DNA of 64,000 nt from assembly GCA_963974935.1 (NCBI GenBank), contig CAXBEV010000008.1:21322-85321 (forward strand), read 5' to 3'. Source of the DNA: an uncultured Rhodospirillales bacterium (lineage in GTDB: Bacteria > Pseudomonadota > Alphaproteobacteria > Rhodospirillales > Casp-alpha2). The notes under the pieces are model-generated. The model was not told the origin of the DNA and did not search any database. It worked only from the letters and a program-made list of their open reading frames with translations. The position numbers and the translations under genes are program-made. Below are positions 1-11,091 of the stretch, one piece after another (within the stretch, counting starts at the first letter, position 1; every line of letters starts with the position of its first letter).

Positions 1-870
1 GCCAGCAACCTCTGGCCCGTTCGGCAACTTTGCATCATCAACGAGCGGCGGCACGTCTTTTGTGTCCGCCGTCGGCGTCAAGTTGGCGTCTGCAGGCTGT
101 GGATTATCGCCCCCGGCATCGTCTGCTGAGAGCAGTGCCAGCAGAGCAATGTTTTCCGGCGCGATACCTTTTGCCGTTTGCCGCTGCAATTCGTCGGCCT
201 GTGCGGGATCGCTGCTGCGCACACGCTTGATGATATCCGCCACGTCAACGATGCCCTGATCGCCGGCGGTATTGATCGCATCGGAGGTGAAGCGATGCAT
301 ATCGCCGATGCCTTTGCGGTTGTTCAGGCCATCTGCCGTGCGCTGATTGGACGCAGCATTATCGGCGGTCAATGCCTTTGCTTTTTCGAACAAGGCGTTG
401 ACGCGAGCTTGCCCTGGCTTGGCCGCAGGTGCGCTGACGTCACCCGCTTTCGGATCGGTTGCGGTCGGCTTTACCTGTGCCGTTTGGCGAGGTGTATTTC
501 CAGACAGACCGGTGACCTCGGTCAGTTTGCGGATGGTTTCGCCGCCTGGATTCATCTGACCGTCGACTTTGAGGCCCTGCTGCTTTTGAAACCGCTTGGT
601 GGCATCCTCGGTACGCATGCCCCAGTACCCGGTGGGACCGTCGGTCTTTTTTAAATCAAGCGCGCCGGCTTTCCCCAGCATGGTTTCCGCCTTGGCGACA
701 TCGGGGCGTTGGTTTTTGCCCTGCACACCGACCGACTGGCCAAGCGCGCCGAGATCACCAAGGTTGCTGATTTCGGTGTCCGCCGACGGCTTCGGCATAA
801 GGCGACCGAACGGGTCCCGGTCTTCAATTTCATATTTTTTACGCTCACGCGTCATGTTTCGATGAAACAT
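1..870 (-). CDS. PG_binding_1-like domain protein, 5' part only (290 codons). The ORF runs off the left edge of the window. Long paralog of the 1643-2143 gene.
   Basis: Absent from the supplied ORF track because it has no stop codon in the window. I read all 290 minus-strand triplets (phase ending at nt 1) and found no stop. ATG at 868-870 has AGGAGA (877-882) 6 nt upstream. The translation MFHRNMTRERKKYEIEDRDPFGRLMP...DVAKAETMLGKAGALDLKKTDGPTGYWGMRTEDATKRFQKQQGLKVDGQMNPGGETIRKL aligns with the 166-aa neighbour and fits the PG-binding pattern (DG..G..T..A..FQ...GL..DG...PGG.T). Confidence 0.7.
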   Translation of the reverse strand, partial: MFHRNMTRERKKYEIEDRDPFGRLMPKPSADTEISNLGDLGALGQSVGVQGKNQRPDVAKAETMLGKAGALDLKKTDGPTGYWGMRTEDATKRFQKQQGLKVDGQMNPGGETIRKLTEVTGLSGNTPRQTAQVKPTATDPKAGDVSAPAAKPGQARVNALFEKAKALTADNAASNQRTADGLNNRKGIGDMHRFTSDAINTAGDQGIVDVADIIKRVRSSDPAQADELQRQTAKGIAPENIALLALLSADDAGGDNPQPADANLTPTADTKDVPPLVDDAKLPNGPEVAG

Positions 871-900
871 TCCCGATCTCCTGATGTTGAGTATGAACAC

Positions 901-925
901 AAAAAGGGCCGCCGATTGGCAGCCC
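901..925 (-). terminator. Rho-independent terminator after the CPBP gene
   Basis: Minus-strand RNA reads GGGCUGCC-AAUC-GGCGGCCC followed by UUUUU. This is an 8-bp stem. Its single non-Watson-Crick pair is G.U on the minus strand but C.A on the plus strand, which favours minus-strand function. Confidence 0.6.
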
Positions 926-964
926 TGAGATGCAAAGATAAAAAAAGTTGGAAAAGAATGCGGG

Positions 965-1642
965 TTACCCGCAGGCGCGCACGTTCATCCAGCAACCGAT
1001 ATCTGAGAACAGCACCAGGTCGACCAAATAATGGGCCATGATCGGCGGCCAAAGGCTTTGGTGATGGCGATATAGGGCCATCGCCATCGCACCGAAGATC
1101 ACGGTCACGAAAATTGGAGCAATCCCCTGTGGCGCGTGGATCAATGCGAATGTGGCGATGGACACAACGTATATGTGCCGCGTGGACCATCCCCGCGCAG
1201 CACCAATTTTCGCTGGCAAATAGCGGAAGACCATTTCTTCACTGACGGCAACGAGCGCGATACCCATCACCGCATCCCCCCAGCGGAGCGTTGGATTGAG
1301 GATCATTGGATATAGCCAATTTACAAAAAACGGAACGGACGGAAAGACGAACCGCGCCAGCTGATCCACAAACAGCGTGGCATACCAAACAATCAACACC
1401 AGGAAGACGGCACGCACCGGTGATATGATGCGTCCCCGCAAAACGGCGCCACCCGTCATCCAAAGCACCAGCAAAATGATGACGGCACGAAGGGCATAAT
1501 CTGCAACATAGAGGCCGAGCGGCGGTAAAAGGAATTTGAGCCAGCCGACCATGAAGATCGCGATGCAACCGAGAAAAATGATAATCCACCGGCGATCATC
1601 GAGTTTACTTAACTGTAAAATATCAAATCTTCGCGACGACAT
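965..1642 (-). CDS. CPBP (CAAX/Abi) family intramembrane metalloprotease
   Basis: 225-aa polytopic membrane protein with all three CPBP motifs: EEMVFR (EExxxR), FALIH (FxxxH) and HYLVD (HxxxD). Its ATG directly abuts the stop of the upstream gene (TAAATG). Confidence 0.8.
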   Translation of the reverse strand: MSSRRFDILQLSKLDDRRWIIIFLGCIAIFMVGWLKFLLPPLGLYVADYALRAVIILLVLWMTGGAVLRGRIISPVRAVFLVLIVWYATLFVDQLARFVFPSVPFFVNWLYPMILNPTLRWGDAVMGIALVAVSEEMVFRYLPAKIGAARGWSTRHIYVVSIATFALIHAPQGIAPIFVTVIFGAMAMALYRHHQSLWPPIMAHYLVDLVLFSDIGCWMNVRACG

Positions 1643-2143
1643 TTACCCTCGAATTCCCCCACCACTGGGATAAGGCTCGCATATCCAATTATCTATGCAT
1701 AGTCCGGTCTCCGGAATGCATATTCTATGCTTTGTCGGATACGTGCCTCTCGGGCAATTTTTTTCGTCCTTGTCTTCCGTTTGCTCTTCCCGCCGCTCCT
1801 TGCGCCGCTTCGCTGCATCACGCGTCTCAGCCAAACGCGTGACGGTCTCGCCGCCTGGATTAATCTGAGCGTCAACCTTTAAGCCATTTGCTTTTTGGAA
1901 TTTACGCGTCGCGTCATCGGTCCGCATGCCCCAATACCCGGTTGGGCCATCGGTTTTGTCAATATCAAGGCCCCCGGCATCAGCGAGCAAGGTTTCAACT
2001 TTTGCGACGTCGCGCCGATTGTTTTTGCCAAATGCGCCGACGGGCGCAGATAAGGTTGTCGGGTCTTTAATATCGGCGATCTCCATATCCGATTTTACCG
2101 GTGGTGGGATACGGCCAAACGAATCCTTCGTATTGAATGGCAT
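1643..2143 (-). CDS. Short PG_binding_1-like domain protein with a Lys/Glu-rich linker and a 4-Cys C-terminal tail
   Basis: 166 aa, with GAGGAG 7 nt upstream of the ATG. The core DVAKVETLLADAGGLDIDKTDGPTGYWGMRTDDATRKFQKANGLKVDAQINPGGETVTRL is paralogous to the 1-870 protein. The C-terminus is CPRGTYPTKHRICIPETGLCIDNWICEP. Confidence 0.7.
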   Translation of the reverse strand: MPFNTKDSFGRIPPPVKSDMEIADIKDPTTLSAPVGAFGKNNRRDVAKVETLLADAGGLDIDKTDGPTGYWGMRTDDATRKFQKANGLKVDAQINPGGETVTRLAETRDAAKRRKERREEQTEDKDEKNCPRGTYPTKHRICIPETGLCIDNWICEPYPSGGGIRG

Positions 2144-2180
2144 TTTCTAGCTCCTCATTTTTCACGTTAGGACGAATGGA

Positions 2181-2209
2181 CTGCCCCTGAAGATAATCTT
2201 CAAGGGCAG
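2181..2209 (-). terminator. Strong stem-loop downstream of the capsid/89-aa gene pair. It is terminator-like but lacks a U tract.
   Basis: 13-bp stem with a 3-nt loop (CUGCCCUUGAAGA-UUA-UCUUCAGGGGCAG on the minus strand). The one irregular pair is G.U on the minus strand and C.A on the plus strand. It sits 35 nt after the stop at 2244. Confidence 0.4.
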
Positions 2210-2243
2210 CCCTGCTCATCATCACAACGCAATCATCAACAGG

Positions 2244-2513
2244 TCAGTCGGTATCCGTCCCGCCGATCTGCGTCATGTCATCGGCGTCTACGGTGCCGGA
2301 TGCATTGGCATTGATGATGAAGATGCCGCCCGCCGGCGCACCCTCGGTATCGGTGTTGGCAAAGACCATATCGCCGGTGCGCAGCATATCGCTGGCATCA
2401 TTAAAATAGCCCGCCGTATCGACGCTGGCGGCCGTATCGATGGTGGTGTAATGCCAGAGCGTAAAGCCGTTTGCATAGGCGAGCACGCTCAGGTCCTTCG
2501 ATTGAAAGGCCAT
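2244..2513 (-). CDS. Small acidic phage-associated protein of unknown function (possibly a head accessory or decoration protein)
   Basis: 89-aa ORF starting 34 nt after the capsid stop, with a strong SD (AAGGAG). The position directly downstream of the capsid gene is the only functional clue. Confidence 0.6.
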   Translation of the reverse strand: MAFQSKDLSVLAYANGFTLWHYTTIDTAASVDTAGYFNDASDMLRTGDMVFANTDTEGAPAGGIFIINANASGTVDADDMTQIGGTDTD

Positions 2514-2547
2514 GTTAGATCTCCTTTAACGATCAATGGGTGATGGC

Positions 2548-3366
2548 TTACGATTCGAGGCAGCGCATCGACACGACACCCGCCGGATCGATCAAGCCCG
2601 AGCCTTGGCTCATCATGTTGTTGATGAAGTTGGCCGCACGATCACCGTGCCAGGTGATGTCGGTTTTGACGTCAGCGCCGACGGCATGACCGATCGCGGT
2701 CTTGTGATACCAATAGCAGTACCGAACGCTCGACGTCAGCGTCAGACCCGAATGCGGCATCCACAACGTCCCCAGCCAACGCTTGGCCTGGGTCCCTTTC
2801 CACGGCAGGTCATCGTCACCGATGTAATCGGCGTGAGCGAACTCTTGAATATCCAAAAGATCAGACCACTGCTTCCAGCCGACAATGGCATAGCGCTCAC
2901 CATCATCCGGCACATCGGCGCCGCCCAACATTTCGAATGCCGAGAGCACCTTGGCCTTGGTCAGGCCGTCGGTGCCGGTACCGGCATAGTTGGTCGACGT
3001 ATCGAACTGCTCGATGATCAATTCGTCGGTTTTACGGCCGAGGGCATACGCGCCCGCATTGGCAATCACCTGGCGCTCGTCGTGCGCGTTTTTAAGCTCA
3101 TCAAGACTGTCGACCCAATCGCCGGCGTAGTAGTCATACAAGGTGACTTCGATCGGTTCGTGATCGACGTTCATCACCGGCACTTTGCCATGCCGCGCTT
3201 TGGTGGACGCGGTGCCCTTGCCAATTTTCTGGAAAGTGGTCGACGAGCCTTTGATGTCGTTTTTCGTGCGCACGGTATTTCGAAGCTTCGAGCCCATGCG
3301 CTGATACGACATGTGGACGTACGTCTGGAAATGTTTGACGAACGACTGGTCTACGGAAGTGGACAT
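2548..3366 (-). CDS. Putative phage major capsid protein (podovirus-type; HK97 fold expected)
   Basis: The start is trimmed to the ATG at 3366 (MSTSVDQSF...), which has GGAGAAGG upstream. The gene is 272 aa and sits in the position after portal and scaffold. The sequence resembles podoviral capsid families from my recollection (FQKIGKG...KARHGKVPVMN...DWVD.LDELK). This was not verified by a search. Confidence 0.6.
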   Translation of the reverse strand: MSTSVDQSFVKHFQTYVHMSYQRMGSKLRNTVRTKNDIKGSSTTFQKIGKGTASTKARHGKVPVMNVDHEPIEVTLYDYYAGDWVDSLDELKNAHDERQVIANAGAYALGRKTDELIIEQFDTSTNYAGTGTDGLTKAKVLSAFEMLGGADVPDDGERYAIVGWKQWSDLLDIQEFAHADYIGDDDLPWKGTQAKRWLGTLWMPHSGLTLTSSVRYCYWYHKTAIGHAVGADVKTDITWHGDRAANFINNMMSQGSGLIDPAGVVSMRCLES

Positions 3367-3568
3367 CTGTCCTTCTCCAATACTGTTGGTTTCATGGTTG
3401 GGTGAAGCCGGCCGGCACAGGTTATGGACATGCATTTGCACGCCGCCCAACGCCGCCGGACGCGCGGACGGGCGCGCTGTGCGTTATCCGTCTGCGAAGA
3501 AAAAGTAATGTGTAAAAAAACGGTGCCAAAAAGGCGAAGTTGATTGGGATGGTATCGCAAGAAACGAT

Positions 3569-3620
3569 GGGGGTGCCGTGCGAAAGACTCACACTTGATG
3601 GCACCCCCACCGAACGGGGG
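3569..3620 (-). promoter_or_regulatory. Structured RNA element in the 312-nt scaffold-capsid intergenic leader
   Basis: A 9-bp stem forms between GGGGGTGCC (3569-3577) and GGCACCCCC (3600-3608). Its C5/G5 arm can alternatively pair with GGGGG (3616-3620). The two hairpins are therefore mutually exclusive. Confidence 0.4.
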
Positions 3621-3678
3621 AGCTGCGAAAACCCCTAAACGCGCTCAACCCCGAACCGATCAAACATCAGCGGGCGCC

Positions 3679-4410
3679 TTAACTTGGATACAGCCGCTGG
3701 AAGCCGTTGCGAACTTTGGCGATCAAAGCCGGGTCCTGATCGCGCCAGTAGCGCGGGTCCTGCATGAGCTTTTTAAGCTTCTGCTCGTCCGGGCCATCGC
3801 CGCCACCGATACCGCTGGTGCCGACGCCGGGCTCATCCGACGCCATCATGCGATGCAATGCGAGCACGCCTTCAAACGACCCGCTGAGCGCATCCATGAC
3901 GTCTTCGGGCAAGTGCGCCTTACCCCAATCGCCAAGTTGTTGGGCGATCCGGCTCCAACGTTCTTTGCCGCCAAAGTATTCCTCCAAACGGCCGCGCACA
4001 TTTTCAGCCGCCAAGTTGCTGCGTGCGGCCGCCAGTTCAGGTGCAACATAGTGACGGGCCAAGTCATAGACCACTTGCGCTTGGTCGTTTGAAAAGCGCG
4101 CTTTGTGAAGCACAGCATTCACCTGTGGGTCAGGTTCGAACTCGCCGCATTCGACGCAATAGCCTTCGGGCGAATCCGGAATGTCGCGCTCGCCCCGGCT
4201 GAAGCGTTGCTCTAGCGCTTGGTAAGAGCGCAAAAGCGCATCAAGTCGGACTTCACCTTTTTCGGCATCCCAGAATTTTTCCGGCAAGCCGGCGGGGCGG
4301 ACCGCCGTTTGATTTAATTGCGCCGGTTGCTCAGGTAAAAGCGGCGGCGCGGCCATGGCATTGGGTGCGGAGTCGTGCGGATGCGTGGTCTCTTCAAGAA
4401 TATTGGTCAT
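3679..4410 (-). CDS. Putative capsid assembly scaffolding protein
   Basis: 243-aa acidic protein that looks helical, located between the portal and capsid genes (the gp9 position in T7-like order). The assignment is by position and composition only. Confidence 0.5.
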   Translation of the reverse strand: MTNILEETTHPHDSAPNAMAAPPLLPEQPAQLNQTAVRPAGLPEKFWDAEKGEVRLDALLRSYQALEQRFSRGERDIPDSPEGYCVECGEFEPDPQVNAVLHKARFSNDQAQVVYDLARHYVAPELAAARSNLAAENVRGRLEEYFGGKERWSRIAQQLGDWGKAHLPEDVMDALSGSFEGVLALHRMMASDEPGVGTSGIGGGDGPDEQKLKKLMQDPRYWRDQDPALIAKVRNGFQRLYPS

Positions 4411-4419
4411 GGTTTTGTC

Positions 4420-4695
4420 CTAATCCGAAATGTCAGAAAAATTGGTGTCGGTCGTCATCGGCCCTTTGCGGCCTCGCTCAATCAGCGCTTGGAGGTGCTG
4501 AACCAATTGCCGCTGCCCTTCGAGATGACGCAGGTGCGCATCGTCTGTGCCGGGCCCTAAAGTACGCTCAATGGTGATCGCACGGATGTAAGTCAGAAGT
4601 AGCCGCCCATCAGCGCCGGCGAAACAACGCGTAGCAATCTGCGCGAGTTCCGTGGGCGAGGGACGCGGATCGGCTGTCGGTTCAAGTCGTGGCAT
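4420..4695 (-). CDS. Small phage protein, Bbp19-like
   Basis: 91 aa. Its ATG overlaps the end of the portal gene by 14 nt, with GGAG 6 nt upstream. The pattern CFAGADGRLLLTYIRAITIERTLGPG...LRHLEGQRQLVQHLQALIERG matches my recollection of the Bbp19 family found in podovirus head modules. Confidence 0.5.
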   Translation of the reverse strand: MPRLEPTADPRPSPTELAQIATRCFAGADGRLLLTYIRAITIERTLGPGTDDAHLRHLEGQRQLVQHLQALIERGRKGPMTTDTNFSDISD

Positions 4696-6379
4696 CGCTT
4701 GCTCCTATCGATACATTTGCTGTGGATGCAGAAGATGGTGCGGGTGCCTGCGGTGACGCTTGATCAGGAGCAGCGCCAGGCATCATGTTTGCGCTACCCA
4801 TCGTGTCGCCCAATTTTTCTAGAAGCTCACTGAGAAAATCACCTTCTTCGGGTAGCGCCATGCCGCCGGGCAATGTAGGCGGGCTTGGCATTGCGGATGC
4901 CGTCGTCAGTTCCTCGTCCGTTTTAAGAATGTCTTCCGGGACACCGAACGCACGCGCGGTGTAACGGGCTGCCTTAAGCGGATCGACCAATGCCATCGCT
5001 TCGGGCCCAAGTGCGGTGAGCCCGCGAATCCATTCCGACACCATACCGGCCTCACGACGTGTCCGCTCGCGTGCCAAAGGCGATGTGTATTCGAGTTCGA
5101 CGACGCGACCATCGATCTCAAAGCTCGGTGTTTCGCCGCGCCGCTGTAAGATCGAGACCGCACGCATGGCAATCGGCGTCAGCAATTCTGCCTGCAGCCG
5201 ACCGTATGTCGCCCCCAGCAGGCGGGCCATCTCTAGCGAGCGTTGAATAACCTCGGTCGCCGTCATATCCGGTCGATCGGGCTGACCGATGATGTCGGAC
5301 AACAGCGCATGCCGAATTCGGGTACGCATTTGTTCGAGCACAATCGAAGATAGATCCATATCGTTCGCCGGCTTTAACGGCGTAAGCCCCGCCGAGCCGA
5401 CCGCTTTCGGAATAATCGTACCCGGCTCGAGCTTGATCGTCGCCGGGTTCAAAACACCATCGTCATCGGCTTGCCAAATCCCGGTCACAGCAATCGAAGC
5501 ATTTTTGAGAACGAGCTCAACAACCTTATTTGCGGTTTTGATATCGGGCAGCGCCTTCATCACCGGCGAGCGTCCATAAATTTCGCCGGGCGCTTTGACC
5601 CAGCGGAAATTGATGAACGGCGACGAGCGAAAGGCACCCGTTGCAAGTACGTCCGCATCCGAGCCACCGTTGTCAGCGGCTTCGCGAACAGCAACATATT
5701 CATATCCACGTGAACCAGGCTGCACGGCCTCAATGACGCTGATTTTTTCGTCGGCGGCATTGCCATCGTCGATATCCGGCAACACGGCATCGGGAAAACG
5801 TTCTTGAAACTGCGTACGGGTCAATTCGGCACGGCGATACGTGACGTCGAGACGACCAGACAAACTTTCTTCGAAAACCACTTCCGACAGTGGCACGGCG
5901 GTAAAACGAAATGCCGATTGATCACCGGCAGGCGCCTCTTCAAACATTAAACACGCGGTGCCCGCAGTCACCAGGTCGAGATAGCACTGATGCATCTCAA
6001 CAGCGAAGTTGGAGCGATCAAAATTTCCCTGCAAGACGGATGCAGCGCGCTCTAAAATTTTTGCCATCTCCGCGTGTTGATCTTCAGGCGCATCCTTACC
6101 CGGTTTGAAATCGAACCAGCGCCCCCAAGGTGGCGTCAATTCGGAGAGCAAGCTTGCCGCCAATTGATCCACCGCATCGGTCGCCGTTGCATCGTACAAC
6201 CGATTGCCTTTCTTAACGCCCGGGTTTGCCGGATCAATCACACTTTCGCGCTGCGGCAAGGCATATTCGTAGCATTCACGCCAATGCCCTTCCCATTGGC
6301 TGCGGCGTGCCTTGGCGCGACGATATCGTTCGATGAGTTTGTCCGGCGCGATATCGGTTTTTGTTTGGTCATGTTTCAT
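4682..6379 (-). CDS. Phage portal (head-to-tail connector) protein, T7 gp8-like
   Basis: 565 aa. The N-terminal region ...ERYRRAKARRSQWEGHWRECYEYALPQRE...LYDATATDAVDQLAASL... is typical of the podoviral Head-tail_con family. GGAGA lies 6 nt upstream of the ATG. Confidence 0.85.
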   Translation of the reverse strand: MKHDQTKTDIAPDKLIERYRRAKARRSQWEGHWRECYEYALPQRESVIDPANPGVKKGNRLYDATATDAVDQLAASLLSELTPPWGRWFDFKPGKDAPEDQHAEMAKILERAASVLQGNFDRSNFAVEMHQCYLDLVTAGTACLMFEEAPAGDQSAFRFTAVPLSEVVFEESLSGRLDVTYRRAELTRTQFQERFPDAVLPDIDDGNAADEKISVIEAVQPGSRGYEYVAVREAADNGGSDADVLATGAFRSSPFINFRWVKAPGEIYGRSPVMKALPDIKTANKVVELVLKNASIAVTGIWQADDDGVLNPATIKLEPGTIIPKAVGSAGLTPLKPANDMDLSSIVLEQMRTRIRHALLSDIIGQPDRPDMTATEVIQRSLEMARLLGATYGRLQAELLTPIAMRAVSILQRRGETPSFEIDGRVVELEYTSPLARERTRREAGMVSEWIRGLTALGPEAMALVDPLKAARYTARAFGVPEDILKTDEELTTASAMPSPPTLPGGMALPEEGDFLSELLEKLGDTMGSANMMPGAAPDQASPQAPAPSSASTANVSIGASDATT

Positions 6380-6381
6380 GA

Positions 6382-6597
6382 CTAATCTCCGAGCTTTTCT
6401 TTGAGGGAATCGTCGGGCGCTCGCGTTTGCTGTGGCTCTAGGACGCCGCGGGCCGAGGTTTCAATGGTGCCAACACGACCGCGACGCCGACGCTCGATAT
6501 TTTCGAGGCGCCGCTTGCGTTCTTCTTCGGCGGGATCAACTTTCTTTGGCGGCTCAGGTGCCGGTGGCGTGGACGGAGATGAGAATAATCCACCCAT
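6382..6597 (-). CDS. Small Pro-rich/basic phage protein preceding the portal gene
   Basis: 71 aa, with a strong SD (AAGGAG) 7 nt upstream. Its stop codon is 2 nt from the portal ATG. It contains the motif RRRRGRVGTIETSARGVL. Confidence 0.6.
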   Translation of the reverse strand: MGGLFSSPSTPPAPEPPKKVDPAEEERKRRLENIERRRRGRVGTIETSARGVLEPQQTRAPDDSLKEKLGD

Positions 6598-6641
6598 GAC
6601 GAGTCTCCTTTCGCTGGGACGTGCCGCAGAAATATCGGCAC

Positions 6642-6673
6642 AAAAAAAGCCGCCGGCTCAAAGAGCGGGCGGC
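6642..6673 (-). terminator. Rho-independent terminator between tldD and the phage-like module
   Basis: Minus-strand RNA reads GCCGCC-C-GCUC-UUU-GAGC-C-GGCGGC followed by U7. Confidence 0.65.
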
Positions 6674-6763
6674 GCGGAAATTATAAATTGGGGACGTTCG
6701 AAACGTGGTCCAGAACGCAAAGGTCTCGGAAAGAAGACGCACTTCTCCCCGAGACTTGAGATA

Positions 6764-6792
6764 ACCTTAATCGAATCTCATGCGAACGTCAA
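6764..6792 (-). promoter_or_regulatory. Sigma70-like promoter candidate (TTGACG-N17-TAAGGT)
   Basis: The -35 element is at 6787-6792 and the -10 element at 6764-6769, with 17-nt spacing. An A-rich tract lies upstream. The candidate sits about 50 nt downstream of the tldD stop. Confidence 0.35.
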
Positions 6793-6843
6793 GTGTTTTT
6801 TAGCGGTCAAGTAGAATGGGCTACAGGACCGATTCCAGGCCGA

Positions 6844-8301
6844 TTACCCGACCGCGGTGCCACCGACAGTAAGACCATCGATCCGCAGCGTCGGTTGGCC
6901 GACGCCAACCGGCACGCCTTGGCCGTTTTTGCCGCATGTGCCGATACCCGGATCAAGCTGCAAATCGTTGCCGATCATTGAGACTTTGGTTAGCACATCC
7001 GGCCCTGAGCCGATCAACGTCGCCCCTTTGACGGGCGTCGTCGCTTTGCCGTTTTCAATTTTATACGCTTCGGTGCAGGTGAACACGAACTTCCCGTTGG
7101 TGATATCGACCTGGCCGCCGCCGAACGACGTCGCGTACAGACCTTTGTCGACGGATGCGATGATCTCACCCGGGTCTTTGTCGCCTGCCAACATGTAAGT
7201 GTTGGTCATGCGCGGCATCGGCATGTGCGCATAGGATTGACGACGACCGTTACCGGTAGACTTTTCACCCATCAGGCGCGCGTTCATGCGGTCTTGCATA
7301 TAGCCGGTTAGTTTACCGTCTTCGATCAAGGTTGTGTATTCGCTTGGCGTGCCCTCGTCGTCAATGGTCAACGAGCCGCGTCGATCATCAAGGGTGCCGT
7401 CATCCACCACGGTCACACCGGGCGCGGCCACGGCCTCACCACGCAAACCTGCAAACGCAGATGTTTTCTTACGATTAAAATCACCTTCGAGACCATGACC
7501 AATGGCTTCGTGCAGCAAAATACCAGGCCAGCCAGGACCAAGAACGACGACCATTTCACCAGCAGGGGCGGGGTCGGCCTGAAGGTTGACGCGGGCTTGG
7601 CGCAACGCTTCGTCGACCGCAGGTTTCCAGGTTTCCGGCTGCAAATACGTTTCAAATGTAATGCGCCCGCCGATCCCGTGCGAGCCCATTTCCATCCGAC
7701 CGTCTTTTTCCAGAACGACTTGCACGTTCAAGCGCACCAAAGGTCGGATATCGGCCACCCGTTCACCCCCAGCGCGCACGATCTGCACCGCCTGCCAGGA
7801 CCCCAACACCGATGCGGTCACTTGCTTAACGTCAGAATCAAGGCTGCGTGCATAAGTATCCATTTCCGCCAGCAAACCGACTTTATCTTCGAACGGCACC
7901 AATGAGAGCGGATTGTGATCGCCGTAAAACGAGCGGTTGGTCGGCTTCAGCGGCACCGCTTCGGCCCCGCCATTGCCCCGAATCACGGCGCGTACGGTCT
8001 TTGATGCTCGGGCCAAGGCGTCTTCGGACATTTCGGACGCATGCGCATAGCCCGTGGCCTCGCCCGACACGGCGCGCAAACCAAAGCCCTGCGCGGTATC
8101 AAAGCTGGCACTTTTAACGCGGCCATCATCGAACATAATGCTTTCGGCTTGGCGGTATTCTAAGAACAACTCACCATCGTCGCTACCATGCAACGCTTCA
8201 TCAACCATCGACTGCGCTTTGTCGAGAGACAGTGCGGTATTGGTGAAAAATAGATCGTCGGTGGCAGCAAGATCGGTCATGGCGCGCCTGAGCCTTTGCA
8301 T
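6844..8301 (-). CDS. tldD: Metalloprotease TldD
   Basis: 485 aa. It carries the HEAIGHGLEGDFNRKKTSAF zinc-protease motif and TldD-like sequence throughout. An alternative start at 8280 (MTDLAAT) is possible. Confidence 0.9.
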   Translation of the reverse strand: MQRLRRAMTDLAATDDLFFTNTALSLDKAQSMVDEALHGSDDGELFLEYRQAESIMFDDGRVKSASFDTAQGFGLRAVSGEATGYAHASEMSEDALARASKTVRAVIRGNGGAEAVPLKPTNRSFYGDHNPLSLVPFEDKVGLLAEMDTYARSLDSDVKQVTASVLGSWQAVQIVRAGGERVADIRPLVRLNVQVVLEKDGRMEMGSHGIGGRITFETYLQPETWKPAVDEALRQARVNLQADPAPAGEMVVVLGPGWPGILLHEAIGHGLEGDFNRKKTSAFAGLRGEAVAAPGVTVVDDGTLDDRRGSLTIDDEGTPSEYTTLIEDGKLTGYMQDRMNARLMGEKSTGNGRRQSYAHMPMPRMTNTYMLAGDKDPGEIIASVDKGLYATSFGGGQVDITNGKFVFTCTEAYKIENGKATTPVKGATLIGSGPDVLTKVSMIGNDLQLDPGIGTCGKNGQGVPVGVGQPTLRIDGLTVGGTAVG

Positions 8302-9691: not shown

Positions 9692-9751
9692 CCTTCATCG
9701 CTTATTCTGTTCCGTCTTGCCATCCTAATATTGGCCTCTTATAACGGCGTT

Positions 9752-9810
9752 ACTACGTGGTGATTTGTCCGACCGGATTGCGGCCACGTTAAATAAACCC
9801 GCTAAAAGGT
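9752..9810 (+). promoter_or_regulatory. SAM-II-type (alphaproteobacterial metA-motif) riboswitch aptamer upstream of metZ
   Basis: The sequence is CGTGG-TGATTTG-TCCGACCGGATTGCGG-CCACG-TTAAATAAACC-CGCTAAAAGG. The P1 stem is CGTGG/CCACG, and the loop GCGG can pair with the downstream CCGC to form a pseudoknot. A sister element lies upstream of metK. Confidence 0.7.
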
Positions 9811-9827
9811 CTCGGCTTGTCTGAGGA

Positions 9828-9885: not shown

Positions 9886-11091
9886 ATGACCAAAGAAACA
9901 TCCCCAGCATCGACCTGGCGAACAGCGACGCGCCTTGTACGCGGTGGCACACAACGCTCCAGCTTTGACGAGACGTCAGAAGCGATCTTTATGACGTCAG
10001 GCTACGTTTACCATAACGCGGAAGAGGCCGAGCAGGCCTTTAAAGGCGACAAGTCGCGTTACATTTATTCCCGCTACGCGAACCCAACACTTTCCATGTT
10101 CGAAGAGCGCTTGGCGCTTTTGGAAGGCAGCACGTATTGCATGGCAACCGCGAGCGGCATGTCGGCAGTATTCGCTGCCTTGGCGTCTCAGCTAAAAGCC
10201 GGTGACCGTGTCGTCGCCTCGCGTGCCTTGTTCGGATCGTGCCTATACATCATCGCCGATCAATTACCCAAATTTGGCATAAAGACAGAACTGGTGGACG
10301 GCACCGACTTGGCCGCATGGGAAGCGGCATTGTCGACACCGGCGAACGTCGTGTTCATGGAAACGCCGTCGAACCCGACCTTGGATGTGATCGATATCGC
10401 AAAGGTATCGGCGCTGGCCCACGCCGCTGGCGCAAAAGTGGTCGTCGACAACGTGTTCGCGACCCCGTGTCTGCAGCGTCCGCTCGAACTTGGTGCGGAC
10501 ATCGTAATCTATTCAGCAACGAAGCACATTGATGGGCAGGGCCGTTCCCTCGGCGGTGCGATTTTGACCAATGACCAAGCCTTCGTCGAAGACCACCTGA
10601 CACCGTGGATGCGTCATACCGGGCCGGCACTTTCCCCATTCAACGCATGGCTTTTGTTGAAGGGGCTGGAGACGCTATCGATTCGCGTCAAACAGCACTG
10701 CGAAAACGCCCTCAAGATTGCGACGTTTTTGGACTCTCACCCAAAGGTCGAGCGCACACTGTATCCGGGCTTAAAAAATCACCCGCAACATGAATTGGCG
10801 CTCAGCCAAATGAGCGGCGAAGGCTCGACGTTGGTTGCGTTCCAGGTCGCGGGCGAAAAAGCCGGCGCATTCGCGATGCTGAACGGCCTATCGTTGATCG
10901 ATATTTCCAATAACTTGGGCGACACGAAAAGCCTGATTACGCACCCGTCAACAACCACGCACCAACGTCTCAGCGACGAAGAACGCGCCGCACTTGGCAT
11001 CACCAACGGTATGGTCCGGTTGTCGGTCGGCCTAGAAGACGCGGATGATTTGATCGAAGACCTAGACCGTGCACTCGCCGGCATAAGCTGA
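9886..11091 (+). CDS. metZ: O-succinylhomoserine sulfhydrylase (Cys/Met-metabolism PLP enzyme)
   Basis: 401 aa with RLVRGGTQRSSFDETSEAIFMTSGYVY...YIYSRYANPT and the PLP-lysine motif SATKHIDGQG. AGGAGG lies 6 nt upstream. Confidence 0.85.
   Translation: MTKETSPASTWRTATRLVRGGTQRSSFDETSEAIFMTSGYVYHNAEEAEQAFKGDKSRYIYSRYANPTLSMFEERLALLEGSTYCMATASGMSAVFAALASQLKAGDRVVASRALFGSCLYIIADQLPKFGIKTELVDGTDLAAWEAALSTPANVVFMETPSNPTLDVIDIAKVSALAHAAGAKVVVDNVFATPCLQRPLELGADIVIYSATKHIDGQGRSLGGAILTNDQAFVEDHLTPWMRHTGPALSPFNAWLLLKGLETLSIRVKQHCENALKIATFLDSHPKVERTLYPGLKNHPQHELALSQMSGEGSTLVAFQVAGEKAGAFAMLNGLSLIDISNNLGDTKSLITHPSTTTHQRLSDEERAALGITNGMVRLSVGLEDADDLIEDLDRALAGIS

Follow-up and report, generated by a model that had tools for sequence, protein, structure and literature searches.

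A T7-type podovirus structural cluster at a conserved chromosomal locus of Rhodospirillales and its possible domestication as a gene transfer agent-like element

The left edge of a 64,000-nucleotide stretch of DNA from an uncultured Rhodospirillales bacterium (contig CAXBEV010000008.1; the whole stretch is called the window below) cuts through a 21.9-kb cluster of phage-type genes that lies between tldD and the gene for methylmalonyl-CoA mutase (MCM). The cluster joins a T7-type head module to tail, packaging and lysis genes, and family searches between its flanks found no integrase or replication gene. Related clusters occupy a syntenic locus across genera of Rhodospirillales, with protein distances that follow those of adjacent host genes and with purifying selection on their coding sequences. 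This anatomy and comparative pattern are held with high confidence. They suggest, with a probability of about 0.6, that the element is a functional, domesticated, particle-producing cluster resembling gene transfer agents (GTAs). To our knowledge, GTAs are known from a handful of independent domestications, and all of the well-studied alphaproteobacterial ones are siphovirus-like. A bolder proposal is that the element is a genuine GTA, ancient, of podovirus type and widespread in Rhodospirillales. It would then represent a second independent domestication of a tailed phage in Alphaproteobacteria, in a lineage that lacks the GTA type of Rhodobacter capsulatus (RcGTA), with an SOS-type repressor and an antitermination leader as its switch and with delivery that dispenses with the T7 internal core. 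This bolder proposal is tentative, and we place it somewhat below even odds.

Gene content of the complete element

The window carries the first 6.6 kb of the element (its head-proximal 30%), and 15.3 kb lie beyond the left edge. The complete gene order with both host flanks was read from two public sequences (L-numbers label the compared loci and scaffolds). The CPBP protein led to TARA Oceans scaffolds that encode it. One of these sequences, L001 (from a 285-kb scaffold), matches 11,642 bp of the window at 100% identity; a homologue look-up added L088, from a strain variant with 99.7% identity. In the direction of transcription, with (-) marking minus-strand genes in that order, tldD is followed by p71, portal, Bbp19, scaffold, capsid, p89, PG166, CPBP, PG529 and p263. 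Next come a Hydrolase_2 endolysin, two fibres (556 and 541 aa), p69, p119, holin, p106(-), p238 and c11, and then tail tubular protein A, tubular protein B, an internal virion protein (c12), c15 and the large terminase subunit (TerL), before the host genes MCM(-), GcrA and NUDIX.

The tail, packaging and lysis genes lie left of the window. Tubular protein A, the adaptor, matches phrog_394 (2e-46), and tubular protein B, the nozzle, matches phrog_376 (4e-140). The internal virion protein has 146 aa (phrog_418, 2e-7). TerL matches phrog_38 (1e-76), and its Walker A (GKST) and Walker B (VVICDD) motifs are intact; c15 (117 aa) overlaps the TerL gene and, judged by position only, is probably the small terminase. 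The lysis genes are the endolysin (PF07486, 5e-22) and the holin (PF11351, 2e-14). c11 is a PG_binding_3 protein, p106(-) a small membrane protein and p238 a secreted Cys-rich protein; the minus-strand genes 3' of the holin were considered as hidden repressors and discarded as membrane proteins. The fibres are of T7 type, with the T7 N-terminal domain assigned through phrog_1640 (5e-24 and 1.5e-30); the Pfam models PF03906 and PF25675 stay under their cutoffs. Towards their C-terminal ends (L001:15322-15700 and L001:17108-17487) the fibre genes have in common a segment of about 380 bp with 83-84% identity. Of the 21 coding differences between two TARA strains, 13 are in the gene for fibre 556. 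The repeated segment and the strain substitutions fit recombination and diversifying change in receptor-binding proteins.

Functions for integration and replication are missing from this inventory. Family searches gave no match to an integrase, a recombinase or a replication gene between the tldD and MCM flanks, where the remaining small open reading frames (ORFs) have no family match, and none to a recombinase or replication gene among the unassigned internal ORFs of well-delimited elements in other genomes. Between the same flanks neither a phage single-subunit RNA polymerase nor a DNA polymerase, the criterion for Autographiviridae, was found. Analogues of the large internal core proteins gp15 and gp16 are also missing, and the stretch from tubular B to TerL encodes nothing in the range of 700-1300 aa. 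The longest repeat common to both junctions is 10 nt, equal to chance for an attachment (att) repeat, and no tRNA gene occurs in the window, L001 or L088.

The original prediction, made from the head genes, had offered two readings. One was the right arm of a prophage whose tail and terminase genes lie farther left: tail, TerL and lysis genes are indeed found in the adjoining 15.3 kb, but the word prophage does not stand in a sequence with no integrase, replication module, tRNA or att repeat. The other was a head-only element, either domesticated or satellite-like: the tail genes remove both head-only and satellite, and the domesticated, GTA-like part is favoured by the comparative data because of the syntenic locus across genera, co-divergence with the host, strong purifying selection and host-like composition. 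It had added that a full set of tail, terminase, lysis and integrase genes with att repeats immediately to the left would speak for an ordinary prophage. The first three groups are present and the integrase and att repeats are absent, and the gene content as read does not support an ordinary prophage.

Distribution, descent and selection

Genes for the capsid protein occur in 248 species-representative genomes. Among these loci, the 80 best are 72-91% identical and belong nearly all to Rhodospirillales in the broad sense. Carriers include Terasakiella, Magnetovibrio, Marivibrio, Caenispirillum, Roseospirillum, Roseospira, Telmatospirillum, Magnetospirillum, Phaeospirillum, Ferrovibrio and one Azospirillum. 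A consensus architecture was obtained by mapping the window proteins to the 80 loci and clustering all ORFs, which were picked by length. It begins with UbiD, class-I lysK and sometimes an aminotransferase as left flank, and continues with an S24 repressor(-), c14, c8, p71, portal and Bbp19. The right part holds scaffold, optional cargo, capsid, p89, tubular A, tubular B, the small internal protein, one or more fibres, c15, TerL, c13, endolysin and holin. lysK stands on the left flank in 15 loci, and MCM and/or GcrA on the right in L018, L022, L052, L069, L071, L072 and the window's genome. In L022 the interval from lysK to MCM contains a complete element, about 16.7 kb long.

Within the window's clade (L008-L015) the endolysin-fibres-holin block has been relocated to directly after p89. 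The window's locus lacks both the S24-c14-c8 unit and c13, L088 lacks S24, c14 and c8, and neither the unit nor c13 was seen in the clade's loci. Whether relatives share the insertion beside tldD had been posed as a check. The closest clade members (L009-L013 and L016) do have tldD as left flank; the consensus architecture has UbiD and lysK there. The MCM flank, which within the clade was read for the window's own genome only, is retained there and is 73% identical to that of L018. A changed left flank beside a kept MCM flank fits chromosomal rearrangement rather than re-integration.

Co-divergence with the host was assessed with Mantel tests that compared protein distances of concatenated portal, capsid and scaffold with those of host flanking genes, which are few. 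The correlation is r = 0.69 for lysK (p = 4e-4, n = 11), r = 0.98 for the adjacent aminotransferase (p = 2e-4, n = 10) and r = 0.97 for tldD (p = 0.035, n = 5). The ratio of nonsynonymous to synonymous substitution rates (dN/dS) in the window's clade is 0.05 for capsid, 0.045 for tubular A, 0.06 for tubular B, 0.08 for p89, 0.09 for holin, 0.11 for portal, 0.14 for scaffold and 0.23 for the fibres, compared with 0.057 for tldD and 0.07 for DUF3422 in the host flanks. Synonymous divergence is alike, and near saturation, in element and host genes. Composition is also close to that of the host. The GC content is 0.559 in the element and 0.570 in the host, and the mean at third codon positions is 0.61 against 0.64 +/- 0.03, which bears out by calculation what had earlier been judged by eye. 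Codon adaptation is host-like, with capsid and p89 above the host mean and capsid highest in the cluster. Taken as sequence evidence, the co-divergence, selection and composition results argue against neutral decay and against repeated integration by a mobile phage. Two general marks of GTAs and viriforms are present in the element: a structural cluster lacking integration and replication functions, and a pattern of vertical inheritance under purifying selection.

Leader, head genes and cargo within the window

The spacer between tldD (6844-8301) and the head module had been described as a 246-nt promoter/terminator cassette, and its extent (6598-6843) is as described. On the minus strand it holds a promoter-like site at 6764-6792, recognized by consensus match only, with TTGAC (6792-6788), a 17-nt spacer and TAAGGT (6769-6764). 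Downstream is a leader hairpin at 6723-6755 (minus strand; 14-bp stem in a terminator-type scan) that carries the box GGGGA(C/G)A..GTG(C/T)GTC(C/T), and then an intrinsic terminator at 6642-6673 (minus strand; stem 6673-6649, T-run 6648-6642), about 40 nt 5' of the p71 start codon. Despite saturation of synonymous sites, the five closest genomes keep five features in a fixed order: a TTGAC -35 box, a -10-like box, the box hairpin, a spacer, and an intrinsic terminator with T-run, after which comes the Shine-Dalgarno sequence. The five-genome clade alignment shows no variation in the TTGAC column, and CCTTGAC(A/T) is kept in a 29-locus alignment. The box sequence is conserved in 29 loci of many genera; its form in the five closest genomes is GGGGACA..GTGTGTCC, and in the outer stem of the hairpin a comparison of the window with L009-L013 shows a change from U-A to C-G. 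A terminator hairpin with T-run lies at most 170 nt from the p71 start in 28 of 32 loci, with stem sequences that vary while pairing is kept. RNAalifold gave no consensus structure for the 29 leaders, whose MAFFT alignment is gappy, and terminators were scored for each sequence separately. In L012:6166-6240 and L013:6506-6560 a GC-rich palindromic unit, GGGCGGGACCGCCGTGGGATAATAG, is repeated in short tandem arrays 3' of tldD, between tldD and the element promoter; it resembles repetitive extragenic palindromes and does not occur in the window.

In distant genera the promoter-box-terminator arrangement sits between c8 and p71, next to the unit formed by the S24 protein, c14 and c8. Of the lysogeny and replication module of an ordinary prophage, the window's genome has nothing at the locus, and other lineages keep no more than this unit. 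The arrangement resembles that of lambdoid late operons, which need an antiterminator. The S24 protein is CI-like, present in most lineages and probably cleavable in the SOS response; it was also considered as the host LexA and rejected at 34.5 bits against a cutoff of 111. Cluster c22 proved to be an artefact, an ORF antisense to the S24 repressor gene. About 3,000 uncharacterised proteins make up the family of c8 (L019:5983-6405 and orthologues). As a Q-like antiterminator it was set aside, with position as the sole support, no Pfam, NCBIfam or PHROG family and a PDB profile search at E > 1. Its AlphaFold model is confident (pLDDT, the predicted local distance difference test, 89.5), but the best Foldseek match in the PDB has E = 0.38. 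An invariant His-Cys pair and a Cys at a helix N-terminus suggest that c8 may have an unrecognised peptidase-like fold or be such an enzyme. c14 had no PDB or family match.

The six head genes that follow the leader, all on the minus strand, agree with the original prediction in order, coordinates and spacing. p71 (6382-6597) encodes a small, basic protein of 71 aa that starts MGG (phrog_831, 4e-5); it is the first gene of the structural operon, and an ortholog was called directly 5' of the portal gene in at least 29 loci. The portal or head-tail connector (565 aa, 4682-6379) matches PF12236 over its full length (4e-131) and phrog_332 (5e-108), and is 52-75% identical to those of other Rhodospirillales loci. 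It is separated from p71 by 2 nt and overlaps by 14 nt the gene for a Bbp19-like protein of 91 aa (4420-4695; PF25181, 2.8e-14), which is kept between portal and scaffold in 43 loci. The T7-type scaffolding protein (243 aa, 3679-4410; PF05396, 1.1e-9) was found in 57 loci. The major capsid protein (2548-3366) matches PF19821 (2.2e-84) and phrog_3437, major head protein (4e-68). Its ORF spans 2548-3450 from a TTG, and the ATG at 3366 that follows a Shine-Dalgarno sequence gives 272 aa, matching the calls on public contigs. p89 (2244-2513; phrog_18004, 5e-22) is a small, acidic protein of 89 aa that always stands 3' of the capsid gene (44 called loci) and, by its position, is possibly a head accessory or decoration protein. 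All six starts are preceded by Shine-Dalgarno sequences of GGAG/AGGA type. Profile matches give a PF12236 portal followed by a T7-type scaffold and a major capsid protein of presumed HK97 fold, which is the make-up of a T7-like structural module, and the four predicted assignments (portal, Bbp19, scaffold and capsid) hold through PF12236, PF25181, PF05396 and PF19821.

The 312-nt spacer between scaffold and capsid is a hotspot of cargo insertion in other genomes. In the window it contains a conserved GC-rich stem-loop at 3408-3458 (minus strand), about 45 nt 5' of the capsid ATG, with 20 pairs, 7 of which have compensatory changes (RNAalifold, 7 clade genomes). This stem-loop may act in the processing or stabilisation of the capsid mRNA.

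After p89 the expected tail genes do not follow. Their absence here had been noticed from the start, and the genes in their place are variable accessory cassettes. PG166 (166 aa, 1643-2143, minus strand) has an N-terminal PF01471 domain (PG_binding_1, peptidoglycan binding; 2.3e-7) and a short, variable, Cys-rich C-terminus. It adjoins with zero gap the gene for a CPBP/Rce1-like membrane protease of 225 aa (965-1642, minus strand; PF02517, 3e-14). The next gene, PG529, runs off the window, which holds its N-terminal 290 aa (1-870, minus strand); the full gene encodes a PG_binding_1 protein of 529 aa. By comparison with other loci, PG166/CPBP and PG529/p263 are members of a wider group of accessory cassettes. 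The PG166-CPBP pair recurs in L009, L029, L031, L035 and L040 at differing positions in the element, and PG_binding_1 cargo pairs also occur in L014, L015, L035 and L040. Among the 80 loci, 32 related PG_binding_1 proteins have in common an N-terminal module of about 100 aa; their C-termini are hypervariable, and in several cases the last residues are GG(I/T)RG. Their genes lie in the scaffold-capsid spacer, behind p89 or behind the holin gene, usually with a gene for CPBP, DUF2927, a Sel1-repeat protein or a p263-like protein on their 3' side. L084:1500-8300 contains a tandem array of 4-5 such pairs 5' of the capsid gene.

This layout looks like that of polymorphic effector/immunity cassettes, although a toxin/immunity reading is speculative. 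It could mean that the domesticated particle serves a use other than gene transfer, either as a PBSX-like killer or as a vehicle for PG-binding cargo, with CPBP, Sel1 and DUF2927 proteins as immunity partners. The conserved module with hypervariable C-termini, the cargo-partner pairs at hotspots inside the element and the missing large DNA-ejection proteins are what such a particle might have. PG166 was tried as a polymorphic toxin and rejected: no toxin domain was found, and the retrieved relatives hold only PF01471 and short, variable, low-complexity tails. The PG-binding proteins have no evident signal peptide, and cargo inside particles is a supposition. The conservation of TerL, whose ATPase motifs are intact, suggests selection for DNA packaging. 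We consider a non-transfer particle improbable, the least credible of the alternatives weighed here. Farther into the window, a SAM-alpha (S-adenosylmethionine) riboswitch (RF00521, 70 bits, E = 1e-13) at 9747-9825 on the plus strand directly precedes a metZ-like gene (9886-11091).

Relation to phages and to domesticated particles

For the head proteins, the nearest relatives among cultured phages are Pelagibacter podophages of the HTVC010P/Hodr type, with a capsid 47% identical to that of Hodr and a portal at about 34%. At the p71 and p89 positions Hodr encodes small proteins of similar size, a likeness of size and position only. Pelagibacter podophages differ in being lytic or temperate phages of about 34 kb with TerL 5' of the portal, full replication genes and large internal proteins. 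The temperate Yersinia phage YeP4 (MK733262) is closest for portal (32%), tubular B (35%) and TerL (30%), and its gene order matches that of the element: small proteins, portal, a Bbp19-size protein, scaffold, capsid, tubular A, tubular B, a small internal protein and, farther on, a small protein, TerL and lysis. Among phages, YeP4 or Hodr comes nearest to the element in gene order. The small YeP4 proteins at the c8, p71 and c15 positions have no detectable similarity to those of the element. YeP4 additionally has an integrase, a repressor, DNA polymerase, helicase, primase and internal virion proteins of 708, 430 and 841 aa.

The IMG/VR database has 166 related contigs, most of them proviral predictions of 15-20 kb with the architecture of the element. 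A few (L117, L138 and L153) are true phages, grouped here with YeP4 as temperate podoviruses that have a T7-type structural module, with a primase or primase/helicase and large internal proteins (1275 aa in L138, phrog_342), and in L117 and L153 a TerL of a different type lies 5' of the portal. These comparison phages and YeP4 have 34-37 kb. The capsids of the three are 72-83% identical to that of the element, with portal and tubular B at only about 35%, so the capsid family would seem to be either intrinsically slow-evolving or exchanged. By gene content, the elements form their own lineage, defined by the lack of integrase, replication genes and ejection core.

Such close capsid relatives in real phages raise the question of whether the element still moves, as a minimal temperate phage or a satellite-like element dependent on a helper or host that inserts repeatedly beside lysK or MCM. 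The listing of 166 related IMG/VR contigs as viral or proviral, the CI-like S24 repressor of most lineages and a head that could probably take up the 16-22 kb cluster, if related phages of about 34 kb are a guide, are consistent with mobility. Those database entries are mostly the proviral predictions just described, and no integrase, excisionase, replication gene, tRNA or att repeat was found. Element distances follow adjacent host genes, clade-specific internal rearrangements are common to related genomes, and in the window's clade the left flank changed and MCM stayed. Continued mobility is quite unlikely on this evidence.

Comparison with known domesticated particles supports a GTA-like cluster by analogy in organization. 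RcGTA (Rhodogtaviriformidae) is likewise a chromosomal cluster of structural, terminase and lysis genes with no integrase or replication genes, inherited vertically in an alphaproteobacterial lineage under purifying selection and with host-like composition; in both, the capsid gene is raised in codon adaptation and the holin belongs to family PF11351. The two are not related in structural ancestry: RcGTA has the prohead protease, tail tube, tape measure and baseplate of a siphovirus-like particle, whereas the element is podovirus-like. No homologue of the RcGTA head-tail proteins (HK97 protease/capsid g4/g5, tail tube, tape measure, g12-g15) was found, all Pfam and PHROG matches being T7-type and PF11351 alone being held in common. 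RcGTA heads take about 4 kb, less than the RcGTA cluster, whereas the head of the element is probably large enough for its cluster. Control of RcGTA involves CtrA, GafA and quorum sensing; that of the element looks phage-like, with a CI-like repressor and a leader terminator. A further comparison is FpGTA: podovirus-like particles have been proposed for this GTA-like system, which has structural, packaging and lysis genes and no other prophage functions. It differs in its Firmicutes host, its two separate loci and the measured packaging of host DNA, whereas the present element is known from genes alone and is likened to it by description. PBSX of Bacillus is a chromosomally fixed structural and lysis cluster under an SOS repressor, present at one locus in related species and not self-propagating. 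It differs as a myovirus-like killer particle that packages 13-kb host fragments, with unrelated proteins and host phylum. Satellites of the capsid-forming phage-inducible chromosomal island type (cf-PICI) have integrase, replication/primase and head genes and no tail; in the element, adaptor, nozzle and fibres are present and integrase and replication genes are absent. Full-text searches of the literature found no published description of this element or of a T7-type domesticated element in Alphaproteobacteria.

A GTA-like history would run as follows. The cluster would descend from a temperate podovirus with a T7-type structural module, of which it kept the genes for building and releasing particles (head, adaptor, nozzle, small internal protein, fibres, terminases, endolysin and holin) and lost the integrase, the DNA replication genes and the large internal core proteins. 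It would have passed vertically at one locus, ancestrally between lysK and MCM-GcrA, through much of Rhodospirillales under purifying selection, with lineage-specific rearrangements, cargo insertions and occasional decay along the way. The whole structural operon would be read from the one promoter 5' of p71, and the leader terminator would halt transcription unless an antitermination-type signal permits readthrough. In most lineages this signal may come from the adjacent early unit, in which the S24 CI-like repressor is divergent from c14-c8. The early unit is absent from the locus in the window's clade, so control there would have to come from elsewhere. A subpopulation of cells would then assemble tailed particles, TerL would fill them with DNA, and holin and endolysin would lyse the cells. 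The result would be a GTA-like (or PBSX-like) element of podovirus type. A podovirus-type GTA might rely on the recipient's own DNA-uptake machinery, as RcGTA does.

Several observations weigh against this scenario. Particle production, DNA content, transfer and regulatory logic are all deduced from genes, and the cluster lacks the large internal core proteins on which T7-like phages depend to eject their DNA. The high conservation of the capsid is partly intrinsic to its family; capsid distances alone track lysK weakly (r = 0.35), and co-divergence rests on few host flanks and not on a full species tree. The head may hold more DNA than the 16-22 kb cluster, because the capsid is about 72-83% identical to those of phages with genomes of about 34 kb, and self-packaging would then be possible. 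By their general definition GTAs pack more or less random host DNA, in amounts below the size of their cluster, and a head of such capacity would be atypical among them. Decayed copies exist in some lineages: L069, L071 and L072 are head-only remnants in which a 3'-truncated capsid gene (at 10001-10800) abuts MCM-GcrA-NUDIX, with S24 repressor, c14, c8, portal and scaffold still in place. Among TARA/ENA strain variants of the window's own species, one has a 154-bp portal deletion and two have a split capsid, and c11 is split into 172 and 344 aa in four assemblies, recurring in independent samples (L002:5400-5650, L003:8278-9095, L005:2757-3585, L088:10001-11628). Finally, the window's clade has no S24 repressor, c14, c8 or c13 at the locus, and the window copy could have been orphaned and have ceased to respond to induction.

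These last observations raise the alternative of a non-functional prophage remnant, in which a podovirus lost integrase and replication genes and the rest is decaying, the window copy being silent for want of repressor and early unit. The head-only remnants, the deleted or frameshifted portal, capsid or c11 genes of some TARA assemblies, and the absence of S24, c14 and c8 from the window and L088 are what decay would leave. Low-coverage assemblies may merely hold errors, and about 20 genes are intact across genera whose synonymous sites are saturated. Their dN/dS of 0.05-0.23 equals that of flanking housekeeping genes, and the fibres evolve fastest, as expected if particles still bind cells. 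The promoter-box-terminator leader is kept even in the clade that has no early unit, and codon adaptation of capsid and p89 is above average. A decaying remnant is unlikely, and a functional GTA-like cluster is preferred.

If that preference is right, a T7-type podovirus cluster has become fixed at one locus in hundreds of Rhodospirillales species. RcGTA-type large clusters have been reported absent from Rhodospirillales (PMC5721377), and the element would fill this gap in an order thought to have no GTA of that type. It also bears on the labelling of these loci, which viral databases now list as proviruses. Among the carriers are genera that can be grown and genetically manipulated (such as Magnetospirillum, Terasakiella, Caenispirillum and Roseospirillum), and complete clusters occur in the cultured strains Terasakiella pusilla DSM 6293, Marivibrio halodurans, Caenispirillum salinarum AK4, Roseospirillum parvum 930I and Magnetospirillum sulfuroxidans J10. 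This makes the element a testable system for phage domestication in which regulatory switch and terminase were kept and the ejection core was lost. Such a system would allow gene exchange by such particles to be gauged in marine and freshwater bacteria.

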